64,000 bases of DNA from sequence record OP557969.1; one strand, 5' to 3'. The stretch's first letter is position 1; each line of letters begins with the position of its first letter. This DNA is from Escherichia phage ph0011. The translations under genes and the position numbers were made by a program. Under the pieces are notes generated by a model. It searched no databases, was not told where the DNA came from, and saw nothing but the letters and a program-made list of their open reading frames with translations. This document shows positions 15,377 through 29,708 of this stretch, in pieces.

Positions 15377-15604
15377 ATGAAAGTAATTCAAGTTATGGTA
15401 GAAAAATACCAAACTGAAGATGGTCGCATTTTTGATTCAGCAAAACAAGCTGAACATCATGAACGTATTATTTCTGGTACACGTAAAGTGTGTCCTACAT
15501 GTAATGGAACACAACAAGTACCGTCAGAGGATTACCGCAGCTTTTATGCTTGTCCACAGTGTGACGGTAAAGGTTACGTAGAAAAACAAGAGGTATGGAA
15601 ATGA
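15377..15604 (+). CDS. small zinc-ribbon protein
   Basis: CPTCNG ... CPQCDG. Confidence 0.5.
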   Translation: MKVIQVMVEKYQTEDGRIFDSAKQAEHHERIISGTRKVCPTCNGTQQVPSEDYRSFYACPQCDGKGYVEKQEVWK

Positions 15605-16014
15605 AATTATATTGCTTAACTAATATGTATTGTCAAGGTGTCCAAGCTGGTATTCAAGCATTTCATGCTGGAGTTAAACTAATCAAAGAATATGAAGGTT
15701 CTTCGTTCAGTACTATGATTGATGAATGGTACAATGAGCATGAAACTATTGTAGTACTAAATGCGGGTGGACATGATAAATTAAATTCTTATTATAAAGA
15801 CCTTAACAAACAGGGAACAGTTCCGTTTGCCAAATTCAATGAAGCTGGATTGAATGATGCTATTACATGTATAGCAGTACTGTGTACATCTGAAATGGTT
15901 GAAGATATGTCTATTATGCGTATGAATCTTCCTGCTGGTGATCAGTTAATGCAGGTGAAATATGGATCATTATTTGACACATTAAAAGCAATTAGTACTA
16001 TGAGGACTATTTGA
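15595..16014 (+). CDS. hypothetical protein
   Basis: ORF track. Confidence 0.5.
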   Translation: MEMKLYCLTNMYCQGVQAGIQAFHAGVKLIKEYEGSSFSTMIDEWYNEHETIVVLNAGGHDKLNSYYKDLNKQGTVPFAKFNEAGLNDAITCIAVLCTSEMVEDMSIMRMNLPAGDQLMQVKYGSLFDTLKAISTMRTI

Positions 16015-19859: not shown

Positions 19860-20242
19860 TGGAAAATGTCGTTGTATATGTATTTGAGATCAATAATGAA
19901 ATCAAGTACGTAATTAATGGTTATAAACATTACACAAGAGCAGACCGAAAGCTGGAAATATATTCAAAAGAAGCAAGAAACTACTGCTTAGGTGATGATT
20001 CAGTTGAGGTTTGGATTGATGGAAATGCAGAGTATTTTGATGCTGACTTCTATGATGATCTTGACAAATCAAATGACTTGTACATTTATGTAGAAAATGA
20101 ACATTATTACACAAATTCTTTGTTTGACATTACCGACAGTACAGTATATGATACTGCTATGGTTAAGTTACTAAAGATTGACCACGATATGTTTAATAAA
20201 CATACAATTTGTGGTTTATTAGATTTTTTCAGAAACTTGTAG
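19859..20242 (+). CDS. hypothetical protein
   Basis: ORF track. Confidence 0.5.
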   Translation: MENVVVYVFEINNEIKYVINGYKHYTRADRKLEIYSKEARNYCLGDDSVEVWIDGNAEYFDADFYDDLDKSNDLYIYVENEHYYTNSLFDITDSTVYDTAMVKLLKIDHDMFNKHTICGLLDFFRNL

Positions 20243-20258
20243 ACAAATACGATCACTG

Positions 20259-20267
20259 TGATATAAT
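20259..20267 (+). promoter_or_regulatory. extended -10 promoter element TGATATAAT
   Basis: exact 9-mer 35 nt upstream of ClpP-like gene. Confidence 0.45.
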
Positions 20268-20301
20268 ACTCACATAAATGAAACAATAGAGGAAAATAAC
20301 A

Positions 20302-20997
20302 ATGGTTGAACAATTCAATTTTGGTGGTTATGCTAATGGTGAAGTAAGTAACATTTCTATTCCATATGTAGTTGAGAAAGTTAATGGTTCAGAACGTACA
20401 TATGATCTAGCATCTCGTATGATGCAAGACCGTATCATTTTCCTTGATACTGACTTCAATGACCAAATGGCACATATCATCAAACAACAATTGGTGTGGT
20501 TAGACTCACAAGGTGATTCCCCTATTACATTCTATATTAGCTCACCGGGCGGTTCAGTACACGCAGGATTGGGTATTGCAGATGTTGCCAAGTCTTGTGT
20601 TTCACCAATTCGTACTGTAGTAATGGGTTATGCAGCTTCAATGGGGTGTTATACTCAATCGGTAATTGGTACTAAAGGTTTTCGTTTAGGTGGTAAGCGT
20701 TCTTACTTTATGTGTCATCAAGTAAGTTCTGGCACACAAGGTTTAATTACCGACCAGAAGATTTCACTTAAACATTCTGATGAATTGAATACACTATTGA
20801 CCAAAGAAATCGCAGAAGCAGTAGGTGTTTCTCATGAACAACTACTGAAAGATGCAGACCGTGATTTGTGGTTGAATGCTGAAGAAGCACTCGAATATGG
20901 TGAAAAAGGATTTATCGATGGTATTATCCTTGGACCACGCAACGAGAAAGGTCAATACCTAGTCAAGCGTCGTGGTGGTGTTGAAGAGTGGGTGTAA
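20302..20997 (+). CDS. ClpP-family serine protease
   Basis: collinear with ClpP: RIIFLDTDFNDQMAHII, ISSPGGSVHAG, GYAASMG (Ser), MCHQ (His), DRDLWLNAEEALEYG (Asp). Confidence 0.8.
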   Translation: MVEQFNFGGYANGEVSNISIPYVVEKVNGSERTYDLASRMMQDRIIFLDTDFNDQMAHIIKQQLVWLDSQGDSPITFYISSPGGSVHAGLGIADVAKSCVSPIRTVVMGYAASMGCYTQSVIGTKGFRLGGKRSYFMCHQVSSGTQGLITDQKISLKHSDELNTLLTKEIAEAVGVSHEQLLKDADRDLWLNAEEALEYGEKGFIDGIILGPRNEKGQYLVKRRGGVEEWV

Positions 20998-21009
20998 AAT
21001 AGTTTTATT

Positions 21010-21036
21010 GATACCCCAAATGGGGTATCATCTTTT
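21010..21036 (+). terminator. possible terminator hairpin
   Basis: stem gatacccc/ggggtatc; weak T-tract. Confidence 0.4.
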
Positions 21037-21045
21037 GGAGATTAT

Positions 21046-21336
21046 ATGAAAGTTCTAGTTCGTAATAATACTGAAGTGGAAAGTGTATTAGATGATTCCG
21101 ATTTTATTAATGTTGCATTCGACCAAATGAGCACAGTAGTGCTTGAATTAAAAAATATAGATGAAGCCGAACGTGTACTGAATGGATTTGCAATTGTGCT
21201 TGAATTAATGAAAGAAGTATTAATTAAAAAGAACATGAATCCAGGTGATGTGGTTAAACATGCAGAAGCTGAGCGTAAAGAACACGGGTCATTCTCTGAT
21301 AAAAAATACATTCAAACTGATGAGGTAAAAGAATAA
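21046..21336 (+). CDS. hypothetical protein
   Basis: ORF track. Confidence 0.5.
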   Translation: MKVLVRNNTEVESVLDDSDFINVAFDQMSTVVLELKNIDEAERVLNGFAIVLELMKEVLIKKNMNPGDVVKHAEAERKEHGSFSDKKYIQTDEVKE

Positions 21337-21337
21337 T

Positions 21338-21784
21338 ATGTCCAATGCACAATATAAAGATGGTTATGACGCATACAAAGCAAAAGTAGTTCTAAGTGCT
21401 GAACAACTAAAAATGCAGCACCCATTGTATCGTCAGGGTTATCGTGCAGCACAAGCAGAATCGATGAAGAAAAATAATGTAACTTTCCCTACGACGTTAT
21501 ATGATATTCCAAAACGCCCACACATTTTTAAAGCAGAATGGACTGATATTATGGCAGCAACTAAACGTCCTCGTTTTGCTAAACTTCACACTGATGAAGG
21601 TCGATGGCTACTAATGGGTATTATGAAAGCAGTTGAGAATCAATCTCACAAAATCGTTCGTTATAAAGATGTTGTGGCTATGGTTGATAAAGCATTTGAT
21701 CTCGTGCTACAATACGGCTATGAAGAAGGCGTATTAACTGTTGCAGATTGTGAACAATATCAGTACACACCTTTTCAAAAATAG
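21338..21784 (+). CDS. hypothetical protein
   Basis: ORF track. Confidence 0.5.
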   Translation: MSNAQYKDGYDAYKAKVVLSAEQLKMQHPLYRQGYRAAQAESMKKNNVTFPTTLYDIPKRPHIFKAEWTDIMAATKRPRFAKLHTDEGRWLLMGIMKAVENQSHKIVRYKDVVAMVDKAFDLVLQYGYEEGVLTVADCEQYQYTPFQK

Positions 21785-21792
21785 TATAACAA

Positions 21793-21824
21793 AAAGGAAT
21801 CCAGATCTGGATTCCTTTTCTTAT
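21793..21824 (+). terminator. rho-independent terminator
   Basis: perfect palindrome ggaatccagatctggattcc followed by TTTT. Confidence 0.65.
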
Positions 21825-21875
21825 TACTGTATACTTAAATGAATATATGAAATTAGTTCTGGTTTAGAGGACATA

Positions 21876-22400
21876 ATGAAATATACACAACTAAACAACA
21901 ATGATACTAATATATGGTTAGGAAATATATCTAAAACACTTGAATTGGTTAAATTCACACTACAAAAATCGGTCGATATTGAAATTAATATTAAGAAAGA
22001 AATATTAAAACATTATCATAAAAATAAATTTTACAAGTTTATTTCTAAATTAATCTATGGGTTATATGATATTGAAGATATTTGTATTGGGTACAGTACT
22101 GGTATTTGTTTCACTACTGATGGTATAATGAATGATTTAAATTTTCGACTAACCCGCGAAGAACAAGATTTTCGTATATTTTGTGATAATATCATGAATG
22201 AAGATAAAATCCAATTTGTGATTGAATTGAGTCAGATATGGTCTGTATATGCAGACAAACCATTCGAAATTAATGAATCAGATATATTAAACTATATTCG
22301 AATAATGAAAATTCATGATTTATGTAAAAACGCATTACTAAGTATTGGAGCCTATGATGAAGCATACGACGTGGTTAAAGATAGCAGAAGTGGTTGCTGA
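21876..22400 (+). CDS. hypothetical protein
   Basis: ORF track; 3' end overlaps cd start. Confidence 0.5.
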   Translation: MKYTQLNNNDTNIWLGNISKTLELVKFTLQKSVDIEINIKKEILKHYHKNKFYKFISKLIYGLYDIEDICIGYSTGICFTTDGIMNDLNFRLTREEQDFRIFCDNIMNEDKIQFVIELSQIWSVYADKPFEINESDILNYIRIMKIHDLCKNALLSIGAYDEAYDVVKDSRSGC

Positions 22401-22836
22401 AGAAAGTAAATGTCTTTCTCAAAAAGTTGGGTGTGTGATTGTTAAAAATAACCGAGTATTGAGTACTGGTTATAATGGTACTCCATCTAAACAACCTAAT
22501 TGTTGTGATGTTAATCAACATTTAGTTAAGAATGGTCGTTTTCAAGACTGGATTAGTGATGAAGCAAAGCATGAACACCATGAGTGGAGTAATATTCATG
22601 AAATACATGCAGAAATGAATGCACTGTTATATAGTTCTCCGACTGAGCGTCAAGGTTCAACACTTTACACAACACTCCAACCGTGTTATACTTGTTCTAA
22701 ATTGATAGCGGGGAGTGGTGTTTCTCGTGTAATTTATCAAAAAAGTTATCCTCGTACTCCACCAGAGGCTATTAAAGTACTGGAAGATGCTGGGATTATT
22801 GTAAATTGCATTTATGATAAGGATCTTGACAAATGA
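22357..22836 (+). CDS. cd: dCMP deaminase (T4 Cd-like)
   Basis: ESKCLSQKVGCVIV, STGYNGTPS, HAEMNAL and PCYTCSK zinc-binding motifs as in T4 Cd; start at ATG 22357 after GGAG. Confidence 0.8.
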   Translation: MKHTTWLKIAEVVAEESKCLSQKVGCVIVKNNRVLSTGYNGTPSKQPNCCDVNQHLVKNGRFQDWISDEAKHEHHEWSNIHEIHAEMNALLYSSPTERQGSTLYTTLQPCYTCSKLIAGSGVSRVIYQKSYPRTPPEAIKVLEDAGIIVNCIYDKDLDK

Positions 22837-23090
22837 CATTATTGGCAATCGCTGGTTTTTTGTTTATATTAGTTTTCTTGTTATTATTGGTAATGTTTGT
22901 TATTGATGATAACGATGGATATTTCAGAAATTATAAAGTACGCTTTTCTGCACAAAATAATAAGTATTATATTGTGAATTGTATTAAACATCGTGAAAAG
23001 AATGTAACAAATAGATTTGGATTTACAATTTATTACAAAGACCGCGTAGAGGCTGATATGATTTGTCAAAAACTTAACACAGTAGAATAA
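22833..23090 (+). CDS. small membrane protein
   Basis: N-terminal hydrophobic helix LLAIAGFLFILVFLLLLVMFVI. Confidence 0.5.
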   Translation: MTLLAIAGFLFILVFLLLLVMFVIDDNDGYFRNYKVRFSAQNNKYYIVNCIKHREKNVTNRFGFTIYYKDRVEADMICQKLNTVE

Positions 23091-23117
23091 AAAAAGGAGC
23101 CATATGGCTCCTTTTTT
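23090..23117. terminator. bidirectional rho-independent terminator
   Basis: palindrome ggagccatatggctcc flanked by A-run and T-run. Confidence 0.65.
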
Positions 23118-23320
23118 ATGTTTTTACGTAAGATGTATAGATCATTATTCAATTTGATTTTGTGAATCATATACATAGAACAAAAACCTCCAACACCTGC
23201 TTTTTCATCTTTTAATTTAATGAAGAAAGTATCATCTCTTAGACTTTCATCTGAATTTTCGATACTATCAATAGAAAAAGGAAGTCTTCCGGTTAATGCA
23301 ATTATGCTACTCTAAGGAAA

Positions 23321-23342
23321 GTGCATGATAATTATCATGCAC
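23321..23342. repeat. 22-bp perfect palindrome just 3' of the minus-strand gene
   Basis: gtgcatgataattatcatgcac. Confidence 0.5.
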
Positions 23343-23356
23343 TATATTATTAAAAA

Positions 23357-26029
23357 TTAAGCACTGATTGTTACAGTTGCAGTATCTTTTTTATTACCAT
23401 CCACTGTAGTCACTGTAATGATTACAGAACCTTCTTCTAGAGCAGTTACTAATCCATCATCACTAATAGATACTTTAGTAGGTTTATCTGCACTATAAGT
23501 TACTGATTTGTTAGTTGCTTTAGCTGGTAGAACTTCTGGAACTAGTTGAACTGTTTTAGTTCCTGATAGTGAAAGTTCAGTAGTTTTAGGTGTTAAACTA
23601 ACACTGGATACTGGAACTGGAATATTAACGATTACTGATGTTTGACCAGTAACATCACTACCATCAGCGGCAGTAGCGATAATATTTGCAGTACCATTAG
23701 TTAGTGCAGTTACGATACCAGTATTAGCATCTACTTTAGCAATTTCTGGAGCACTGGATGACCAAATTACATTTTTATTGGTTGCATCACTTGGGGTAAT
23801 TGCAGCAGCCATTTGTTTAGTTGCATTCAATGTAGTCAAAGTTTGATCTTTAGGAGTTACATCAATTGCAGTTACTGGCACTGGAATATTAACAGTAATA
23901 ACACCTTGACCTGTTTTACCACTTCCATCAGCAGCAGTTGCGATAATGTTTGCAGAACCGTTAGTTAACGCAGTTACAACACCAGTACTAGCATCTACTT
24001 TCGCTACAGCAGGTTTACTGGAAGACCATGTTACAGATTTATTTGTTGCGTTAGTTGGAAGAACTTCAGCAGCCATTGCTTGAGTTGCGTTAACAGCAGT
24101 CAATGTTTTAGTTGCTGGAGTAACATTAATAGATGCGACTGGAACTGGAATTGCTACAGTTACCGCACATTTTGCAGTTTTTGCTCCATCAGCAGTTGTT
24201 ACTGTGATATCAGCAGTGCCATTTGCTACAGCAGTGATTAAACCAGTTGGACTAACAGTTGCCACTCCATCAGCAGAAGTACTATAAGTTACTGCTTTGT
24301 TGGTAGCATTAGGTGGTAGTACAGTTGGTGTTAGTTGTTGAGTATCACCGACTGAAGTTAATTTAGCACTTGTTGGAGATACTGATACACTTGCAACAGG
24401 AACTGGAATGTTAACAGTTACCACGCAAACTTTAGAAAATCCACCATCAGATGTGGTTGCTGTAATATTTGCAGTACCGTTTGCAACAGCAGTGATTAAA
24501 CCAGTTGGACTTACCGTTGCGACACCCTCAGCAGAAGTAGTGTATGAAATATCTTTACGACGAGCGTTATCTGGAATAACAGATGCAGTTAGTTGTTGAG
24601 TAGCACCTACAGAAGTTAGGGTTGCTGTCAACGGAGTCATATTAATTCCAGTTACTGGGATCGTTACATCAATCACTGATTCAGCAGTTTTAGCACCATC
24701 ATCAGTGGTAACAGTAATAGTTGTAGTACCGTTATCAACCGAAGTTACTAGACCAGTATTACTAACTTTTGCTACGTCTGGATATGAAGAAACATATGAA
24801 ACTGCTTTATTGGATGCAGTTGCAGGAGCAACGGTTGTTTCTAATTGTTTAGTATCACCTAATGTTGAGAATGTATAAGTACTAGGAGTCATTGTGACAC
24901 CAGATACTGGTGTTTTCACTGTGATTGTAGTAGTGTCCGTTTTAGCACCATCTTCGGTTGTAGCTGTAATCACCACTGTGCCGTTAGCCACACCAGTTAC
25001 TAGACCAGAAGTAGGGTTAACAGTTGCTATATCAGGTGTTGCTGAAGACCACGTGACGTTTTTATTAGTTGCATCATCAGGAGATATTGTAGCAGTTAAT
25101 TGTTGAGTACTGCCAACGTTAATTGATGCAGTTTTAGGAGAAACAACAACACCACTAACTGGAGTTGTTACAGTAACAGTACATTTTGAAACAAATGAAC
25201 CATCAACTGTAGTTGCAATTACATCAGTACTGCCATCTGCAATACCAGTTACCATACCAGTTGGACTTACAGTTGCGAAGCGTGGTATACTGGATGACCA
25301 AATAACACTTTTATCACTTGCATCATCGGGTGATACGGTAGCTGTTAGTTGATGAGTTTTACCAACACCAAGAGATAGAGTTGAAGGAGAAACAACAACA
25401 CCACTAACTGGAGTTGTTACAGTAAATGCACAAACATCGGTGAAACCACCATCATGAGTAGTAACTGTTACATTTGCATTACCATTAGCACGGGCAATTG
25501 CTAAACCAGTTTGAGCATCAACTTCAACTATTGTTGGAGCAGAGGAACTATAACTTACTGTTGGATCATTTGCATAATCTGGATTAATTGTAGCTGATAG
25601 TTGTTGTGTGCTACCAACTTTAAGTGCTACTACTTTGGGTGAAATAATAACACCATTAACTGGTGTAGTATAATCACGTTTAACCACACGACCATTGTTC
25701 AATTTAATAATACGACCCATATAAAGAGTAGCATATCCCTTACTAATCCCATCATCTACATAAATCATAAATGAATTGTCTTGAACCATATTAATTGCGT
25801 CTACTGGCTTAACAGTATTTGGAATGTCGATACCACGGGTATCATACCAACACATGGAAACTTTGTAATATATATCACCATTATCATTGATGAGATCATA
25901 CACGTTACTGGAACGTTGACGGTTAATATATAAAGTTTCGGTTAATACCTTACCATCGATTTTAGCGACAGAAACTTTAATACCACCAATACCAAATGGC
26001 AATTTACCTTCACTAGATATTGCTTTCAT
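23357..26029 (-). CDS. Ig-like (Big_2-type) repeat protein, probable virion surface/decoration or adhesin protein
   Basis: 890 aa; about ten tandem ~85-aa repeats of pattern VSGVVVSP..VG.TQQLTATV.P..ATNK.V.WSS..P..A.V...GLVT..A.G...ITATT.DG; late-promoter motif upstream. Confidence 0.8.
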   Translation of the reverse strand: MKAISSEGKLPFGIGGIKVSVAKIDGKVLTETLYINRQRSSNVYDLINDNGDIYYKVSMCWYDTRGIDIPNTVKPVDAINMVQDNSFMIYVDDGISKGYATLYMGRIIKLNNGRVVKRDYTTPVNGVIISPKVVALKVGSTQQLSATINPDYANDPTVSYSSSAPTIVEVDAQTGLAIARANGNANVTVTTHDGGFTDVCAFTVTTPVSGVVVSPSTLSLGVGKTHQLTATVSPDDASDKSVIWSSSIPRFATVSPTGMVTGIADGSTDVIATTVDGSFVSKCTVTVTTPVSGVVVSPKTASINVGSTQQLTATISPDDATNKNVTWSSATPDIATVNPTSGLVTGVANGTVVITATTEDGAKTDTTTITVKTPVSGVTMTPSTYTFSTLGDTKQLETTVAPATASNKAVSYVSSYPDVAKVSNTGLVTSVDNGTTTITVTTDDGAKTAESVIDVTIPVTGINMTPLTATLTSVGATQQLTASVIPDNARRKDISYTTSAEGVATVSPTGLITAVANGTANITATTSDGGFSKVCVVTVNIPVPVASVSVSPTSAKLTSVGDTQQLTPTVLPPNATNKAVTYSTSADGVATVSPTGLITAVANGTADITVTTADGAKTAKCAVTVAIPVPVASINVTPATKTLTAVNATQAMAAEVLPTNATNKSVTWSSSKPAVAKVDASTGVVTALTNGSANIIATAADGSGKTGQGVITVNIPVPVTAIDVTPKDQTLTTLNATKQMAAAITPSDATNKNVIWSSSAPEIAKVDANTGIVTALTNGTANIIATAADGSDVTGQTSVIVNIPVPVSSVSLTPKTTELSLSGTKTVQLVPEVLPAKATNKSVTYSADKPTKVSISDDGLVTALEEGSVIITVTTVDGNKKDTATVTISA
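23560..25700 (-). repeat. tandem coding repeats (~255-bp period) within Ig-like gene, including identical 40-nt segments
   Basis: ggagaaacaacaacaccactaactggagttgttacagtaa occurs at ~25139 and ~25390. Confidence 0.6.
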
Positions 26030-26066
26030 ATACTTTCCTTTATAAAATTGTATTGTATTGTTATAT

Positions 26067-26074
26067 TATTTATA
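26067..26074 (-). promoter_or_regulatory. T4-type late promoter motif TATAAATA (minus strand)
   Basis: tatttata on + strand, ~37 nt upstream of minus-strand ATG at 26029. Confidence 0.45.
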
Positions 26075-26329
26075 TTATAACAAAATTATTTTAGTATTAA
26101 AAAGGTGTTCGAATGCTTCTTGAAATCTGGCTTGGACAGGTCAATCTTTGCTTTTAAAATGGAATTGTAAACTGCCTCCTGATATGATATCATAGTTTAA
26201 ATGGTAAATCAATAAACTTAACAAAAAAAACTTGCTACTACAGTCATAATTGTTCAATTTTGTACTTGACATAATTAATCAATTATTGTACTATTGTTAA
26301 TGTTCCTTAACTCAAATCCGAGGTAATCA

Positions 26330-26935
26330 ATGAAACTATTCTTGAAAGAGATTGTACAAACCGTTGTTTTAATCGCTGCATTAAATTTTCCAGCAGCGGC
26401 AGAAGTTTCAAAAAAAGCATCTGTTCTTCTATTAAATGAACAGGTTGTATCAATGGATGGTGAACTAAATGATAATACGGTACAAGAAGTAGAGCAGTTG
26501 TGGAAAGAAAAAAGATTTAAAATTTTAACAATTACATCACCTGGGGGTGATTTTGATGCTGGTATTAAAATGGCAAATTTTGTTAGAGACAATGGTATAA
26601 ATTTAATTGTTTCTAAATATTGCAATTCGGCATGTACTGTGGTATTCTTTAGTGTATCCCCAGAAAAGCGATATATGACAAATCAATCAGTACTGGGATT
26701 GCATAATATTTCAATCAAAAGTAACGTTAAAGATATGGATCATACTTTCGTATCTGTTAGACAACTATCATCATTTACTGAAGAAATGGCAACAAAAGTA
26801 GGATTTTTATTTACACTATATTCAGCTAATGGTATTCCACCTAGCATTCTATATAAAGTTAGTCGTTCACGTGGTGAAGATGTTGTTATCTTAACAAAAA
26901 CAGACCTAATAAATTACGGTTCAGTCAATCCATGA
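26330..26935 (+). CDS. secreted ClpP/crotonase-fold (S49-like) protein
   Basis: N-terminal signal-like segment; TSPGGDFDAG resembles ClpP SPGG motif. Confidence 0.5.
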   Translation: MKLFLKEIVQTVVLIAALNFPAAAEVSKKASVLLLNEQVVSMDGELNDNTVQEVEQLWKEKRFKILTITSPGGDFDAGIKMANFVRDNGINLIVSKYCNSACTVVFFSVSPEKRYMTNQSVLGLHNISIKSNVKDMDHTFVSVRQLSSFTEEMATKVGFLFTLYSANGIPPSILYKVSRSRGEDVVILTKTDLINYGSVNP

Positions 26936-27003
26936 AAATAATTATAATAACAGGATGATTATGTTGTTCTTCCTTTGTTATTAACTATATCGGAAATATA
27001 ACC

Positions 27004-27264
27004 ATGACAAACATCCAGAATTTGACATCTATTATTTTTTATGCTACAGTGGTGATATATGCTATTGTACTTATTTTAACAGTTTTTATATACAAAGATT
27101 ACAAAAAAGGCTTTATTAATAGCACAACAATCAAGTTCAATTCTAAATTTAAAGAAATTATATTTTATGTTTTGACAACATCATATTTGTTGTGTATATT
27201 GTTACTAGGGCCATTGATTTATATTTTATATACAACATTATTTGCAATTGGAGCTATTTTATGA
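27004..27264 (+). CDS. small membrane protein
   Basis: three hydrophobic segments. Confidence 0.5.
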   Translation: MTNIQNLTSIIFYATVVIYAIVLILTVFIYKDYKKGFINSTTIKFNSKFKEIIFYVLTTSYLLCILLLGPLIYILYTTLFAIGAIL

Positions 27265-27857
27265 CATGTATTATTGCACACACTAACGGTGTAACTTCAT
27301 TTATTGCAGGGGACAAGATGGGGAGTGATGGTTTTACGAAATCAATCCAAACAGAGCCGAAAGTGTTTGAGAAAGAATTCGTAAAGATTAGTGGTGATGA
27401 CGGCTTGACTCGTACAAAAGATGTTATGACTTTTGGATTCACTACATCATTTCGTATGGGGCAACTGCTAACTTACAATTTAAATTTACCAGACCAAAAT
27501 TCAAATGAGACGTTTCTACAGTACTTAGTACTGAAAGTTATTCCTATTATTCGCCAAATGTTTAAAGACGAATGGGGTGCACGTGATACATCACAAGATG
27601 TTGGTGGTGGTCAATTTATTATTTTACACAATCATAAGATTTATGAAATTCAGGAAGATTTTTCAGTTCTCCAGTCAAAATCAAGTATTGCATCAGTTGG
27701 TAGTGGTACATATCATGCAATTGCAGCGATGCAAGCATACATTGAACTCGAAAAAGAAACTAACGTACAACTTCATGAACGTATCAAATCTATTTTCAAA
27801 ATTGTCAGTGATAATGTGTCGAGTGTAAGTGAAGAGTTTGATGTATTAAAATATTAA
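27261..27857 (+). CDS. HslV/proteasome beta-like Ntn hydrolase
   Basis: M-T start (Thr1 nucleophile) TCIIAHTNGVTSFIAGD and IASVGSGTYHAIAAMQAY parallel HslV TTIVSVRRNGHVVIAGD and IAIGSGGPYAQAAARAL; ATG 27261 overlaps upstream stop with GGAG upstream. Confidence 0.65.
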   Translation: MTCIIAHTNGVTSFIAGDKMGSDGFTKSIQTEPKVFEKEFVKISGDDGLTRTKDVMTFGFTTSFRMGQLLTYNLNLPDQNSNETFLQYLVLKVIPIIRQMFKDEWGARDTSQDVGGGQFIILHNHKIYEIQEDFSVLQSKSSIASVGSGTYHAIAAMQAYIELEKETNVQLHERIKSIFKIVSDNVSSVSEEFDVLKY

Positions 27858-27872
27858 AATTATAAGAGAGAA

Positions 27873-28067
27873 ATGATGGCATACACAATTTATGAATGGA
27901 TTTTGAGTTTTATTATAGTATTTTTTATGGTTGTAATTTACAATAATGCTAAATGCTTATATAGAGATTTAAAATCCAATGGTTATCATGCAAACAATAA
28001 TTTAATGTATGCCTATCATATTGGAATCATTCTATTATTATCAATATATTTAATTGGCTTTATATAA
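27873..28067 (+). CDS. small membrane protein
   Basis: two hydrophobic helices. Confidence 0.45.
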   Translation: MMAYTIYEWILSFIIVFFMVVIYNNAKCLYRDLKSNGYHANNNLMYAYHIGIILLLSIYLIGFI

Positions 28068-28076
28068 GGATTACGT

Positions 28077-28829
28077 ATGATATCAGAAAAATTCATAAGT
28101 AATGAGGGAAACAAGAGATTACTTATCATCTCAGGAGCAGGTCTTTCCGTTGAAAGTGGTATGGACCCATTTCGTTTCGATGATGGCCTATGGGATACAT
28201 TTAAAATTAATGATGTATGTAATATTGCAAATTTAGATACAAAATATCATATTGTTCATTCGTTTTATAACACGCTGCGTGTTAAACTGGGTCAATGTGA
28301 ACCAAATGCAATGCATTATTTTATAAAATCATTAGAGGAACAATATGGTGATTGTTTCCTTCATATGACTTCAAATATGGATGATCTTTACACCCGTATT
28401 GGCGGTAAAGAACTTAAACTTCATGGTAATTTATGTGAAGTGATAGAAAATTATAGTATTAATGGTGATGATTACAACATTGTTAACTGTGGTTATGAGC
28501 CATATATCCCAAAACATGATATTTTTGCTAAACCAAATGTAGTGATGATTGGTGAGTATCATCGTTATGTAGATGGTGTACGCCTACCAATATATGAAGA
28601 ACGAAATAATGTCTTGAAATCCCTTGATGAAAATGATACAGTTATTGTTATTGGTAGCAGCGATACTGTTCTTGTATGGTCCCGATTGGTAGCATCATTG
28701 CCATGTTATAGTGTCAATGTTAATATTAGAAAGAATGATAATGATTTTTTGTTTAATGAAAAAATTATCAAGCCAGCAACCAAAGCAATACCACAACTAG
28801 AGACTATAATTAAGGAACGTATGAAATGA
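28077..28829 (+). CDS. SIR2-family (sirtuin-like) NAD-dependent enzyme
   Basis: GAGLSVESGMDPFRFDDGLW, TSNMDDLYTR, LHGNL, VIVIGSSDTV match sirtuin motifs (CobB GAGISAESGIRTFR..GLW, TQNIDNLHER, HG, IGTSG); zinc tetra-Cys module not evident. Confidence 0.75.
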   Translation: MISEKFISNEGNKRLLIISGAGLSVESGMDPFRFDDGLWDTFKINDVCNIANLDTKYHIVHSFYNTLRVKLGQCEPNAMHYFIKSLEEQYGDCFLHMTSNMDDLYTRIGGKELKLHGNLCEVIENYSINGDDYNIVNCGYEPYIPKHDIFAKPNVVMIGEYHRYVDGVRLPIYEERNNVLKSLDENDTVIVIGSSDTVLVWSRLVASLPCYSVNVNIRKNDNDFLFNEKIIKPATKAIPQLETIIKERMK

Positions 28830-29377
28830 GTGTTAAAGAAGTTCCCTTTGGTGAATATGGTTCACGTGCAAATTTTGTATTCTGCTATTTCTTTGCAAGA
28901 GGATGTAATCCCTACGAAAACTATGAGTTGAATGATATACCAGAAGTAAATTTAGTATTACTTCAACTACGATGGGATGGCCTTCTGGGTGGATGTGGTG
29001 GTACAGTTGAAAGTACTGATATCTCATTAGAAGATGCGTTGCGTCGTGAAATACAAGAAGAAATGAACTACTATATTTTTGTTTCTCACCTAAAACCACT
29101 TAAAACGTTTGAAATTTACCCAGGTGCAAACAGTCATAGTTTCAGTTATGAAGTAACATATGATGAGTTAAAATACATTCGTGATGGGTATACAACTGCC
29201 AAACATGCAAGTGCCGAAGTTGCTGGTGTAAATTTATGTCACATTTCTCGTTATTCTAAGGGACAAAATCGAGAAGCGGGATATAATAATCTTATGACAC
29301 AGAACTTCATCGGTACAGCAAAACACGAATTAGCGTATCTGGTACAAAAAGAGAACTTACTAATTAGCTATCTATAG
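28826..29377 (+). CDS. divergent Nudix-like protein
   Basis: GGCGGTVE ... RREIQEEMN resembles Nudix box G-x5-E-x7-REUxEExGU with longer spacer; start overlaps SIR2 stop (ATGA). Confidence 0.45.
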   Translation: MSVKEVPFGEYGSRANFVFCYFFARGCNPYENYELNDIPEVNLVLLQLRWDGLLGGCGGTVESTDISLEDALRREIQEEMNYYIFVSHLKPLKTFEIYPGANSHSFSYEVTYDELKYIRDGYTTAKHASAEVAGVNLCHISRYSKGQNREAGYNNLMTQNFIGTAKHELAYLVQKENLLISYL

Positions 29378-29387
29378 GAGTTTAAAA

Positions 29388-29708
29388 ATGTCTTACTCTA
29401 TGTTTTTGGATGACATTCGTGATGCAAAACAATATTACCCTAATCAAGATATGGTAGTATGTCGTGATTTTAACAGTGCGTGTGAATATGTTGTTAAAAA
29501 TGGAATTCCAGCATTTGTATCATTTGACCATGACTTGGGTGATATGAGTGGAGACGAAAAAACTGGATATTCTTTTGCTAAATTTCTTATTGATTATATG
29601 TTTGATAATAATATTAAAGAACCGTTTGAGTACTTTGTGCACAGTAGTAACCCAGTTGGTAAAGTTAACATTGAAACATACTTAAACAATGGATTTAATG
29701 CATTATGA
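29388..29708 (+). CDS. hypothetical protein, possible receiver(REC)-like fold
   Basis: FLDDIRD ... FVSFDHDLGD ... VHSSNP acidic-pocket pattern; weak inference. Confidence 0.45.
   Translation: MSYSMFLDDIRDAKQYYPNQDMVVCRDFNSACEYVVKNGIPAFVSFDHDLGDMSGDEKTGYSFAKFLIDYMFDNNIKEPFEYFVHSSNPVGKVNIETYLNNGFNAL

Follow-up and report, generated by a model that had tools for sequence, protein, structure and literature searches.

Three protease-fold genes in an Asteriusvirus jumbo coliphage: a ClpP homologue with a predicted phage ClpA partner, a probably exported ClpP-fold protein and an HslV-like peptidase

Overview

The stretch of 64,000 nucleotides of Escherichia phage ph0011 analysed here (record OP557969.1; the window) carries three protease-type genes, ORFs A, B and C (Table 1), which are probably three separate non-structural proteolysis genes and not one system: the core of a phage ClpAP protease (ORF A), a periplasmic enzyme (ORF B) and a stand-alone peptidase (ORF C). 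The product of ORF B is predicted to be exported and so could not share a compartment with those of ORFs A and C. The source of the window is an Asteriusvirus, one of the 121Q/PBECO4-like jumbo coliphages, with UE-S1 as the closest record at 90% DNA identity.

An earlier note on this DNA, made from the letters alone, had proposed the three genes, and all three ORFs are present where it placed them, together with the motifs that it named. It had called for structure prediction, profile searches and a check of the catalytic residues; AlphaFold2, Foldseek and Pfam recovered the ClpP and HslV folds, and the residues are in place in the alignments of all three ORFs. Its view that three compartmentalised-protease homologues in one phage segment are unusual did not survive. 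The trio is kept throughout Asteriusvirus and is already known, having been annotated in 121Q in 2014, where GenBank labels gp464 and gp473 'protease (ClpP-like)' and gp475 'protease (ClpYQ-like)'. HslV/proteasome homologues are common in phages, with 36 BFVD structures matching at E <= 1e-3, and such homologues (AAH, CPH and PPH) have been catalogued (Fuchs, Alva, Lupas 2021, PMC8665760). The word 'cluster' is loose for the trio: the clpP gene is 5.3 kb further upstream, with a promoter-like/terminator-like unit to itself, and ORF B, if exported as predicted, would not be in the compartment of A and C.

Table 1. Features of the three protease-type genes and their surroundings (positions in the window)
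Feature	Position	Strand	Basis
Sigma-70-like promoter match, TAGACA-16-TG-TATAAT, upstream of ORF A	20240..20267	+	consensus match only
ORF A, phage ClpP homologue, 231 aa	20302..20997	+	Pfam, BLASTP, PDB search
ORF A triad codons	Ser113 20638-20640; His139 20716-20718; Asp188 20863-20865	+	alignment to E. coli ClpP
Terminator-like hairpin directly 3' of ORF A	21009..21030	+	terminator scan
ORF B, predicted exported ClpP-fold Ser-His hydrolase, 201 aa	26330..26935	+	Pfam, PHROG, AlphaFold2, Foldseek
ORF B predicted Sec signal peptide, residues 1-24, MKLFLKEIVQTVVLIAALNFPAAA followed by E	26330..26401	+	hydropathy
ORF B invariant residues	SPGG residues 70-73; Cys98 26621-26623; Ser100 26627-26629; Cys102 26633-26635; His125 26702-26704	+	
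Small membrane protein, 86 aa, two hydrophobic spans, = 121Q gp474	27004..27264	+	ORF list, hydropathy
ORF C, HslV-like N-terminal-threonine (Ntn) peptidase, 198 aa	27261..27857	+	PHROG, profile, AlphaFold2, Foldseek
ORF C residues	Thr2 27264-27266; Asp18 27312-27314; Lys34 27360-27362; Gly59 27435-27437; GSG147-149 27699-27707	+	
Small membrane protein, 64 aa, two hydrophobic spans, 3' of ORF C; UE-S1 UES1_426	27873..28067	+	hydropathy

ORF A and a candidate ClpA partner

The earlier identification of ORF A as a ClpP with Ser, His and Asp in place was borne out. It matches Pfam CLP_protease (PF00574) with an E value of 1.6e-41 (142.6 bits, cut-off 20.2) and E. coli ClpP by BLASTP with 4e-39 at 36% identity across 191 aa, and a PDB search returned 109 ClpP sequences with a best E of 3.7e-36. 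In the BLASTP alignment Ser113, His139 and Asp188 fall on Ser111, His136 and Asp185 of E. coli ClpP (precursor numbering) and the N-terminal segment IPYVVEKVNGSERTYD is aligned to VPMVIEQTSRGERSFD. The sequence varies over the N-terminal ~15-19 residues, possibly a propeptide. Orthologues are 94-99% identical within Asteriusvirus and 45-76% identical across the RaK2-like phages. The scores under the NCBIfam ClpP models lie below the cut-offs (156 against 249 bits for NF001368, 152 against 308.6 for TIGR00493), and by sequence ORF A is a divergent ClpP paralogue and not a canonical orthologue. Two of eight residues that we take to line the docking pocket of E. coli ClpP are changed, Tyr60 to Thr and Phe82 to Ser, and thus the pocket appears altered.

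The neighbours of ORF A are genes for a DNA ligase, a phosphoesterase and a dCMP deaminase, with no head genes among them. Terminator-like sites in the scanned region number 9 against 3.8 expected; promoter-like sites show no excess (46 against 49 in the shuffled expectation), so the operon structure is only suggestive. Searches of the literature for characterised phage-encoded ClpP found no examples, and the patchy spread of phage ClpP has been taken as host-directed (Iyer et al. 2021, PMC7824862).

The earlier note saw no HslU or ClpX ATPase in the window, and tblastn with E. coli ClpA, ClpX, HslU and Lon indeed detected no AAA+ unfoldase there, the best E being 4. The search that it proposed beyond the window for a cognate ATPase was fruitful, since all relatives carry a ClpA homologue: a gene of 763 aa occurs in every sequenced Asteriusvirus and RaK2-like relative, about 84-86 kb from clpP. 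This position falls outside the window, and hence we infer the ClpA gene of ph0011 itself only from relatives at 85-96% identity; with the gene order of UE-S1 it would lie about 43 kb past the right end of the window. Once the whole genome of the relatives is considered, the puzzle of the missing ATPase is gone for ClpP. The suggestion of host unfoldases or ATPase-independent roles is therefore not supported for ClpP, and a phage-encoded partner is missing for the HslV-like protein only.

The ClpA homologue is gp581 in 121Q, with a UE-S1 copy that is 95.8% identical. It shares 43% identity with E. coli ClpA across 732 aa and is full-length (Clp_N, D1, D2, D2-small; Pfam domains Clp_N, AAA, AAA_lid_9, AAA_2 and ClpB_D2-small) with both Walker A motifs, and its docking loop reads SIGM (tripeptide IGM) against SIGL in E. 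coli ClpA. By tblastn it is the single ClpA-like gene in the whole relative genome (E 9.6e-141), in which ClpX, HslU, Lon and ClpS were not found, the weak ClpX, HslU and Lon matches all lying on the ClpA gene itself. Across all phages, tblastn searches for unfoldases and adaptors are ambiguous because contigs of host DNA are filed as phage records. The ClpA-like proteins and the ClpP orthologues cover the same clade, namely the RaK2-like phages of Escherichia, Klebsiella, Salmonella and Erwinia, and ClpA has been described as highly conserved in most Rak2-like phages (PMC6102473).

From this co-inheritance and the conserved docking elements we infer a partnership between ORF A and the phage ClpA. 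ORF A would supply the proteolytic core for a ClpAP machine of the phage's own, in which ClpA, the predicted partner, would unfold chosen substrates and pass them into the ClpP chamber via its IGM loops; selected host or phage proteins may thereby be degraded during infection with no dependence on host ClpA or ClpX. The likeness to E. coli ClpAP extends over the whole length of ORF A, including the Ser-His-Asp triad, SPGG and the N-terminal axial-loop sequence, and to the domain order, both Walker A motifs and the IG(L/M) docking tripeptide of the relatives' ClpA. It is limited by the identities of 36% (ClpP) and 43% (ClpA), by the lack of a ClpS adaptor in the relative genome and by the ~84 kb that separate the phage clpP and ClpA genes.

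ORF B, a probably exported ClpP-fold protein

The signal-like N-terminus and ClpP-like SPGG segment pointed out for ORF B were both found. A hydrophobic segment (hydropathy maximum 2.6) is followed by PAAA, with an AxA motif, and then E, which fits a Sec signal; such a segment is present in 128 of 150 family representatives, and in the AlphaFold2 model (pLDDT 93.4) the N-terminal helix is detached and leads into a low-confidence linker. The SPGG lies within a TSPGGD segment. ORF B matches Pfam CLP_protease at 5.5e-05 (23.6 bits, cut-off 20.2) and phrog_26024 'protease' at 3.4e-83, and Foldseek aligned its model to ClpP at 2.8e-9 with TM 0.65-0.74 and rmsd 2.4-3.2 A. A single-sequence search of the PDB gave scorpion toxins, which were rejected as chance matches driven by the YCNSxCT motif.

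The family of ORF B is large, with about 2,000 clusters at 50% identity (E <= 1e-3). S70, G72, G73, C98, S100, C102 and H125 are invariant in 33 diverse relatives, and CxSxC occurs in 146 and SxGG in 149 of the 150 representatives. A profile alignment matches Ser100 to the nucleophile of ClpP and His125 to its histidine; the equivalent of the ClpP Asp is not conserved across the family. No name for this SxGG...CxSxC...H family was found in Pfam, NCBIfam or the literature, its PHROG being phrog_26024, and a literature search on COG3904 gave no useful paper.

It is proposed that ORF B is exported through Sec into the periplasm, where a Ser100-His125 dyad, flanked by the invariant Cys98 and Cys102, would make it a serine hydrolase of the ClpP fold that needs no ATP. 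Outside the cytoplasm it would have to act without ATP, and most likely it cuts envelope or periplasmic proteins or peptides. In this it would resemble NfeD/STOPP and SppA (S49), ClpP-fold peptidases of the membrane or periplasm, and there is a weak match to Pfam NfeD1b_N (PF25145; 0.0035, 17.4 bits) that lies below the cut-off of 40. SppA and NfeD use a Ser-Lys dyad. Unlike them, ORF B has a ClpP-type His, the family-specific CxSxC and a small single domain of 201 aa.

ORF C, an HslV-like threonine peptidase

ORF C was read in the earlier note as a proteasome-beta-type, HslV-like peptidase; the fold, Thr1, IAGD and GSG stood, and orthology with HslV did not. The protein begins MTC, IAGD occupies residues 15-18 and GSG residues 147-149, and since 116 of 120 homologues also begin MTC the true start is the ATG at 27261 and not the upstream GTG at 27192. 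Removal of Met would turn Thr2 into Thr1 and place Thr1, Asp17 and Lys33 at HslV numbering. Invariant in the family are M1, C3, D18, K34, G59, S63-F64-R65 and G147, and T2 is conserved in at least 90%.

ORF C matches phrog_1040 'peptidase HslV family' at 1.3e-21, and its family profile matches HslV in the PDB at 1.4e-7 to 2.2e-7, with a gap-free alignment to E. coli HslV that pairs the Thr with Thr1, D18 with D18 and K34 with K34. In Foldseek the AlphaFold2 model (pLDDT 93.5, four helices) matched HslV at 3.6e-10; BPH was matched with a TM as high as 0.74, and 20S beta subunits gave E values of 1e-7 to 1e-6. Pairwise BLASTP against E. coli HslV was not significant (E 1.1 to 15, identity about 22%) and single-sequence phmmer against the PDB gave no match; significant HslV matches came only from the family profile and structure prediction. 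The HslV equivalog models TIGR03692 and NF003964 score 17.8 and 17.5 bits against cut-offs of 137 and 157.75, and on sequence ORF C is an HslV-like proteasome homologue and not an HslV orthologue.

HslV (ClpQ), the best PDB match by both profile and fold, shares with ORF C the Ntn proteasome-beta fold, the Met followed by the nucleophile Thr, and equivalents of Asp17, Lys33 and GSG. ORF C differs from it in an invariant Cys at position 2, in TTSFRMGQLL, which replaces the HslV sequence, and in a lineage-specific beta-hairpin insertion of 16-20 residues (residues ~37-57); no HslU was found in the window or in the whole relative genome. With the Group I homologues BPH, AAH, CPH and PPH (PMC8665760) ORF C has in common a compact HslV/BPH-like subunit, occurrence in Caudovirales and the lack of a known ATPase partner. 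An assignment to PPH was rejected, as PPH has ~140 residues and lacks helix H2, whereas ORF C is 198 residues long with four helices. None of eight phage contexts of the family contained an AAA+ unfoldase near the ORF C homologue.

ORF C is thus pictured as a cytoplasmic proteasome-type peptidase in which Thr1 would become free, as it does in HslV, through the action of the host's methionine aminopeptidase; Asp17, Lys33 and the oxyanion Gly are in place. By analogy with BPH and Anbu it most likely acts without a dedicated phage ATPase; activation by host HslU is possible.

Gene neighbourhood of ORFs B and C

The stop of the 86-aa membrane-protein gene, for which no family was found in Pfam or PHROG, overlaps the start of ORF C (ATGA), which suggests that the two are translationally coupled. 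ORF C is flanked by small membrane proteins and heads a Sir2/Nudix/cREC counter-defence block. A conserved pair of ORFs B and C outside Asteriusvirus was considered and rejected. On one distant phage contig (L006) an HslV-like gene is directly preceded by a ClpP-fold gene, but the ClpP-fold protein has no signal peptide and no BLAST similarity to ORF B, and was missed by the ORF B family HMM. None of the seven other contexts of the ORF C family contained an ORF B-like gene, and a further candidate for such a pairing, a neighbour on L024, was rejected as unrelated to ORF C.

Alternative readings

The idea of the earlier note was essentially that ORF C takes over host HslU, so that a hybrid protease of HslU and the phage HslV forms and ATP-dependent degradation is redirected in infection. 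HslV is indeed the nearest relative of ORF C by sequence profile and fold, the catalytic residues sit at HslV numbering, E. coli has HslU while the relative phage genome has none of its own, and HslV genes without HslU have been noted in another jumbo-phage paper (PMC7823757). Against these points, ORF C reaches just 17.8 of the 137 bits of the equivalog cut-off and ~22% non-significant pairwise identity to E. coli HslV, and its hairpin insertion separates the strand of Lys33 from the oxyanion Gly59. The position of HslV Lys28, which is presumably a contact for the HslU C-terminus, is Ile in the ORF C family by profile alignment. The family also has members in metagenomic phages, from groundwater and elsewhere, and in a genome assembly of Myxococcota, and we regard the takeover of HslU as unlikely. 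It is very improbable that ORF A is a protease of head maturation or of another morphogenetic step, with the ClpA homologue an assembly chaperone for giant virion proteins. RefSeq labels 121Q gp464 a head maturation protease, the best PHROG match of ORF A is phrog_94 'head maturation protease' (3.4e-44), and the 121Q ClpA gene lies within the tail/baseplate module, adjoining the gene for a ~3300-aa virion protein, which could mean a role in assembly; mass spectrometry of CBB virions also detected the ClpP orthologue by one peptide (4.5% coverage), a weak hint of virion association (PMC5259590). However, the 121Q head module runs portal, gp600 (virion structural protein), gp21-like protease, scaffold, major capsid protein, and this gp21-like protease matches Pfam Peptidase_S77 at 9.9e-21. 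The gp21-like protease, and no Clp or HslV-like protein, is listed in the phAPEC6 virion proteome (PMC7247149). ORF A scores 52.3 bits on the ClpP-related head-maturation model NF045542 (cut-off 120) and about three times higher, 152-156, on the cellular ClpP models; it is set among DNA-metabolism genes and is not tagged structural in 121Q. The RefSeq label is probably wrong. Head maturation would fall to the separate T4 gp21-like S77 protease, which is alike with ORF A only as a phage-encoded serine protease, the fold and gene being unrelated, so none of ORFs A-C needs to be the capsid maturation protease. The earlier concern that ORF A might prove to be the prohead protease with an unrelated fold is answered by its ClpP fold and the separate S77 enzyme.

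A further reading makes ORF B, ORF C or both non-proteolytic, either pseudo-enzymes or Ntn/Ser hydrolases whose substrates are not proteins; they might, for example, serve with the NAD/nucleotide counter-defence genes nearby. The ClpP-fold/crotonase superfamily also contains enzymes that are not proteases. Directly 3' of ORF C lie a Sir2 gene, a Nudt16-like Nudix gene and a cREC_REC gene, its homologues in relatives adjoin Sir2, Acb1 and NAMPT, and it has a weak, non-significant match to connectase, a ligase. This reading has the lowest probability of those considered, as the full proteasome-type catalytic set is invariant in ORF C and the ClpP Ser and His in ORF B, and the top structural matches of both are proteases. 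The adjacency to Sir2 is seen in the closest relatives only and hence may be inherited gene order, and PADLOC defence models gave no matches for ORFs A-C, Sir2 or the neighbours in the Myxococcota operon. A more novel proposal, chiefly on ORF B and given little credence here, is that the phage sends ORF B into the host periplasm to cut a specific envelope target, such as a receptor or a defence/exclusion factor; if true, this would make it the first of a class of ClpP-like effectors that act in the periplasm and without ATP. Separately, and to a lesser degree, ORF C may be a stand-alone phage proteasome homologue removing host defence proteins.

Implications

Giant phages bring their own genes for protein quality control and degradation, here a predicted complete pair of ClpA and ClpP together with two protease-fold enzymes that are orphans. 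The viral takeover of the ubiquitin-proteasome system would have a counterpart among bacterial viruses if the phage ClpAP degrades particular host proteins, for instance regulators or defence factors. With a loop that reads IGM and an altered pocket, this ClpAP would then also be a tractable model for the evolution of ClpP docking specificity.

Phage lineage and gene content

A megablast search with window positions 20000-28000 matched 42 phage records, with Escherichia phage UE-S1 the closest (90% identity, 89% covered), followed by A4, 121Q, PBECO4 and phAPEC6. Because all of these are RaK2-like jumbo phages of enterobacteria, with UE-S1 best, the source of the window is assigned on sequence matches to Asteriusvirus, with a genome of ~350 kb. 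The presence of three protease-fold ORFs, claimed in the earlier note, was confirmed and their fold assignments and catalytic residues proved right in profiles, alignments and AlphaFold2 models. The trio is neither unusual, as had been thought, nor new, being already annotated in 121Q.

Features of the protease region and ClpA homologues of relatives (window positions unless a locus is named; L022, stretch of 121Q; L016, stretch of OR844650.1)
Feature	Position	Length	Remarks	121Q counterpart and label
CXXCXGXG zinc-finger protein	15377-15604	75 aa		'DnaJ-like chaperone'
PTH2-type peptidyl-tRNA hydrolase	15595-16014		2.5e-6; adjoins zinc-finger gene	
ORF A	20302-20997	231 aa	ClpP homologue	gp464, 'protease (ClpP-like)'; RefSeq, 'head maturation protease'
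Ig-like protein	23357-26029, - strand	890 aa	nine Big_2 domains, Pfam 9.3e-136	gp471, 'structural protein; Ig domain'
ORF B	26330-26935	201 aa	ClpP fold, predicted export	gp473, 'protease (ClpP-like)'
Hydrophobic protein	27004-27264	86 aa	two predicted membrane spans; flanks ORF C, overlaps its start codon	gp474, hypothetical
ORF C	27261-27857	198 aa	HslV-like	gp475, 'protease (ClpYQ-like)' / 'peptidase HslV family'
Hydrophobic protein	27873-28067	64 aa	two predicted membrane spans; flanks ORF C	
Sir2, Nudt16-like Nudix, cREC_REC genes	28077-29708		directly 3' of ORF C	
ClpA homologue, 121Q	L022:15258-17546, opposite strand		alone, in tail/baseplate module	gp581, 'ClpA-like'
ClpA homologue, OR844650.1	L016:11203-13494			

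The ClpP homologue and head maturation

ORF A matched Pfam CLP_protease (1.6e-41) and was 36% identical to E. coli ClpP across 191 residues, its Ser113, His139 and Asp188 pairing with the catalytic triad and its N-terminal segment IPYVVEKVNGSERTYD with the axial-loop sequence VPMVIEQTSRGERSFD. It matched 109 solved ClpP sequences (best 3.7e-36), and scored 152-156 bits with the NCBIfam ClpP models, under their strict cut-offs, and 52 bits against a cut-off of 120 with the ClpP-related head-maturation model. ORF A is a paralogue of ClpP that has diverged, rather than a prohead protease of the ClpP type. Its orthologues span the entire RaK2-like clade, at 94-99% identity in Asteriusvirus, 66-76% in phages of Klebsiella, Pectobacterium, Erwinia, Yersinia and Salmonella and 45% in a Xanthomonas phage.

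The 121Q head module runs portal (gp20-like), gp600, capsid maturation protease (gp21-like), scaffold (gp22-like) and major capsid protein (gp23-like), and gp601 matched Peptidase_S77 (9.9e-21, Pfam). ClpP as the prohead protease was rejected given this separate gp21-like S77 enzyme, and the refuting case set out in the earlier note, that ORF A would prove to be the prohead protease with an unrelated fold, falls too, since it is a ClpP homologue and relatives carry the S77 protease. The phAPEC6 virion proteome includes the gp21-like protease and lists no Clp or HslV-like protein (PMC7247149); a weak counter-signal is the single peptide by which virion mass spectrometry of phage CBB listed its ClpP orthologue (PMC5259590). 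The 'head maturation protease' label is found on the ClpP orthologue of 121Q (L001:3045-3740 in a 121Q stretch; RefSeq NC_025447.1) and in several newer records, and apparently derives from phrog_94; on gp464 it is probably wrong because of the separate capsid protease.

The ATPase

No Clp, HslU or Lon-like gene was found within the 64-kb window. The complete genome of a relative, OR844650.1, was put together from loci L013-L020 and searched with E. coli ClpA, ClpX, HslU, Lon and ClpS; there was one ClpA match (9.6e-141), the ClpX, HslU and Lon queries gave weak matches to that gene only, and ClpS gave none. The ClpA homologue, of 763 aa, shares 43% of 732 aligned residues with E. coli ClpA, retains both Walker A motifs and the Pfam domains Clp_N, AAA, AAA_lid_9, AAA_2 and ClpB_D2-small, and has KRSIGMSGSD in the ClpP-docking loop versus RKSIGLIHQD in E. 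coli. It is carried by all Asteriusvirus records (95.8% in UE-S1) and by RaK2-like Klebsiella phages (73-76%), a phage distribution the same as that of ClpP, and ClpA was noted as highly conserved in most Rak2-like phages in the Atu_ph07 paper (PMC6102473). In 121Q it lies ~84 kb from clpP and on the other strand. A gene for a ~3300-aa virion protein adjoins the phage ClpA homologue, far from clpP.

The lineage thus encodes a ClpP together with a ClpA. Lack of an ATPase remains true of the window and of the HslV-like gene but not of ClpP, so the proposed reliance of ClpP on host unfoldases finds no support.

A predicted exported ClpP-fold protein

ORF B matched phrog_26024 'protease' (3.4e-83) and, barely over threshold, CLP_protease (5.5e-5); the group has no family name in Pfam or NCBIfam. 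Only 11 close relatives came up in the word-indexed search. Searching 1.84 billion representatives with a profile gave 2,026 matches at E <= 1e-3, of which 44 reached E <= 1e-10. S70, G72, G73, C98, S100, C102 and H125 were invariant in 33 diverse members, among which the ClpP Asp position was not conserved; in the profile alignment Ser100 and His125 pair with the ClpP nucleophile and histidine. Among the top 150 representatives CxSxC was present in 146, SxGG in 149 and an N-terminal hydrophobic segment in 128, and in ORF B the N-terminus MKLFLKEIVQTVVLIAALNFPAAA|E resembles a Sec signal peptide. The AlphaFold2 model (pLDDT 93.4) matched ClpP subunits at 2.8e-9 (rmsd 2.4-3.2 A).

The HslV-like peptidase

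ORF C matched phrog_1040 'peptidase HslV family' (1.3e-21) and fell far below curated HslV cut-offs. A total of 324 homologues were found. In the family M1, C3, D18, K34, G59, S63-F64-R65, Q68, G117, G147 and V189 are invariant and T2 is at least 90% conserved, and an MTC start was seen in 116 of 120 homologues. The family profile found HslV first (1.4e-7), then 20S beta subunits and the bacterial homologue BPH, and aligned gap-free with the HslV Thr, Asp and Lys; the model (pLDDT 93.5) matched HslV at 3.6e-10 and BPH with TM <=0.74, and at E <= 1e-3 the fold was also seen in 36 BFVD viral structures. A catalogue by Fuchs, Alva and Lupas (PMC8665760) covers the proteasome homologues carried by phages (PPH, AAH, CPH); assignment of ORF C to PPH was rejected for its excess length and helices.

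Eight phage contexts of the family held no AAA+ unfoldase, their genes including DNA ligase, Metallophos, dCMP deaminase, PhoH, Sir2, Nudix, NAMPT and Acb1. On an unrelated large-phage contig (L006:7258-7977; 8001-8558) a PhoH gene and a cytoplasmic ClpP-fold gene (NfeD1b_N 9.2e-6, CLP_protease 3.5e-4), which belongs to another subfamily than ORF B does, directly precede the HslV-like gene. A cellular MTC member closes an apparent five-gene operon in Myxococcota assembly GCA_039027095.1 (L007:4070-8555), downstream of a ParA-like ATPase and proteins of 281, 352 and 416 aa, these three without Pfam or PADLOC match.

Gene neighbourhood

A promoter-like site lies on one side of ORF A and a terminator-like hairpin on the other. 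The genes from ORF B through the 86-aa protein, ORF C, the 64-aa protein and Sir2 to Nudix are not interrupted by any terminator-like site, and the 86-aa ORF overlaps the start of ORF C by 4 bases (ATGA). As promoter-like sites were not enriched over shuffles, this layout is only suggestive. Neither hydrophobic protein had a known family in Pfam or PHROG. The Sir2 (PF02146, 1.1e-19), Nudt16-like Nudix (2e-18) and cREC_REC 'cyclic-phosphate processing receiver' (1.5e-22) genes look like an NAD/nucleotide counter-defence block; in relatives the HslV-like gene still adjoins Sir2, with Acb1, NAMPT or NADAR genes added nearby.

The Ig-like gene has a tandem period of 264 bp, and its orthologues encode 125 aa in 121Q and 633 aa in UE-S1; the repeat array therefore grows and shrinks strongly among close relatives. 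The protein could serve as a decoration of the virion or as a 'hair' protein. The zinc-finger protein lacks a J domain and scores under Pfam thresholds.

Predicted functions

We infer that the phage makes a ClpAP machine, exports a ClpP-fold hydrolase and has an HslV-like threonine peptidase that works alone, and ORFs A-C probably serve non-structural host-takeover or auxiliary functions.
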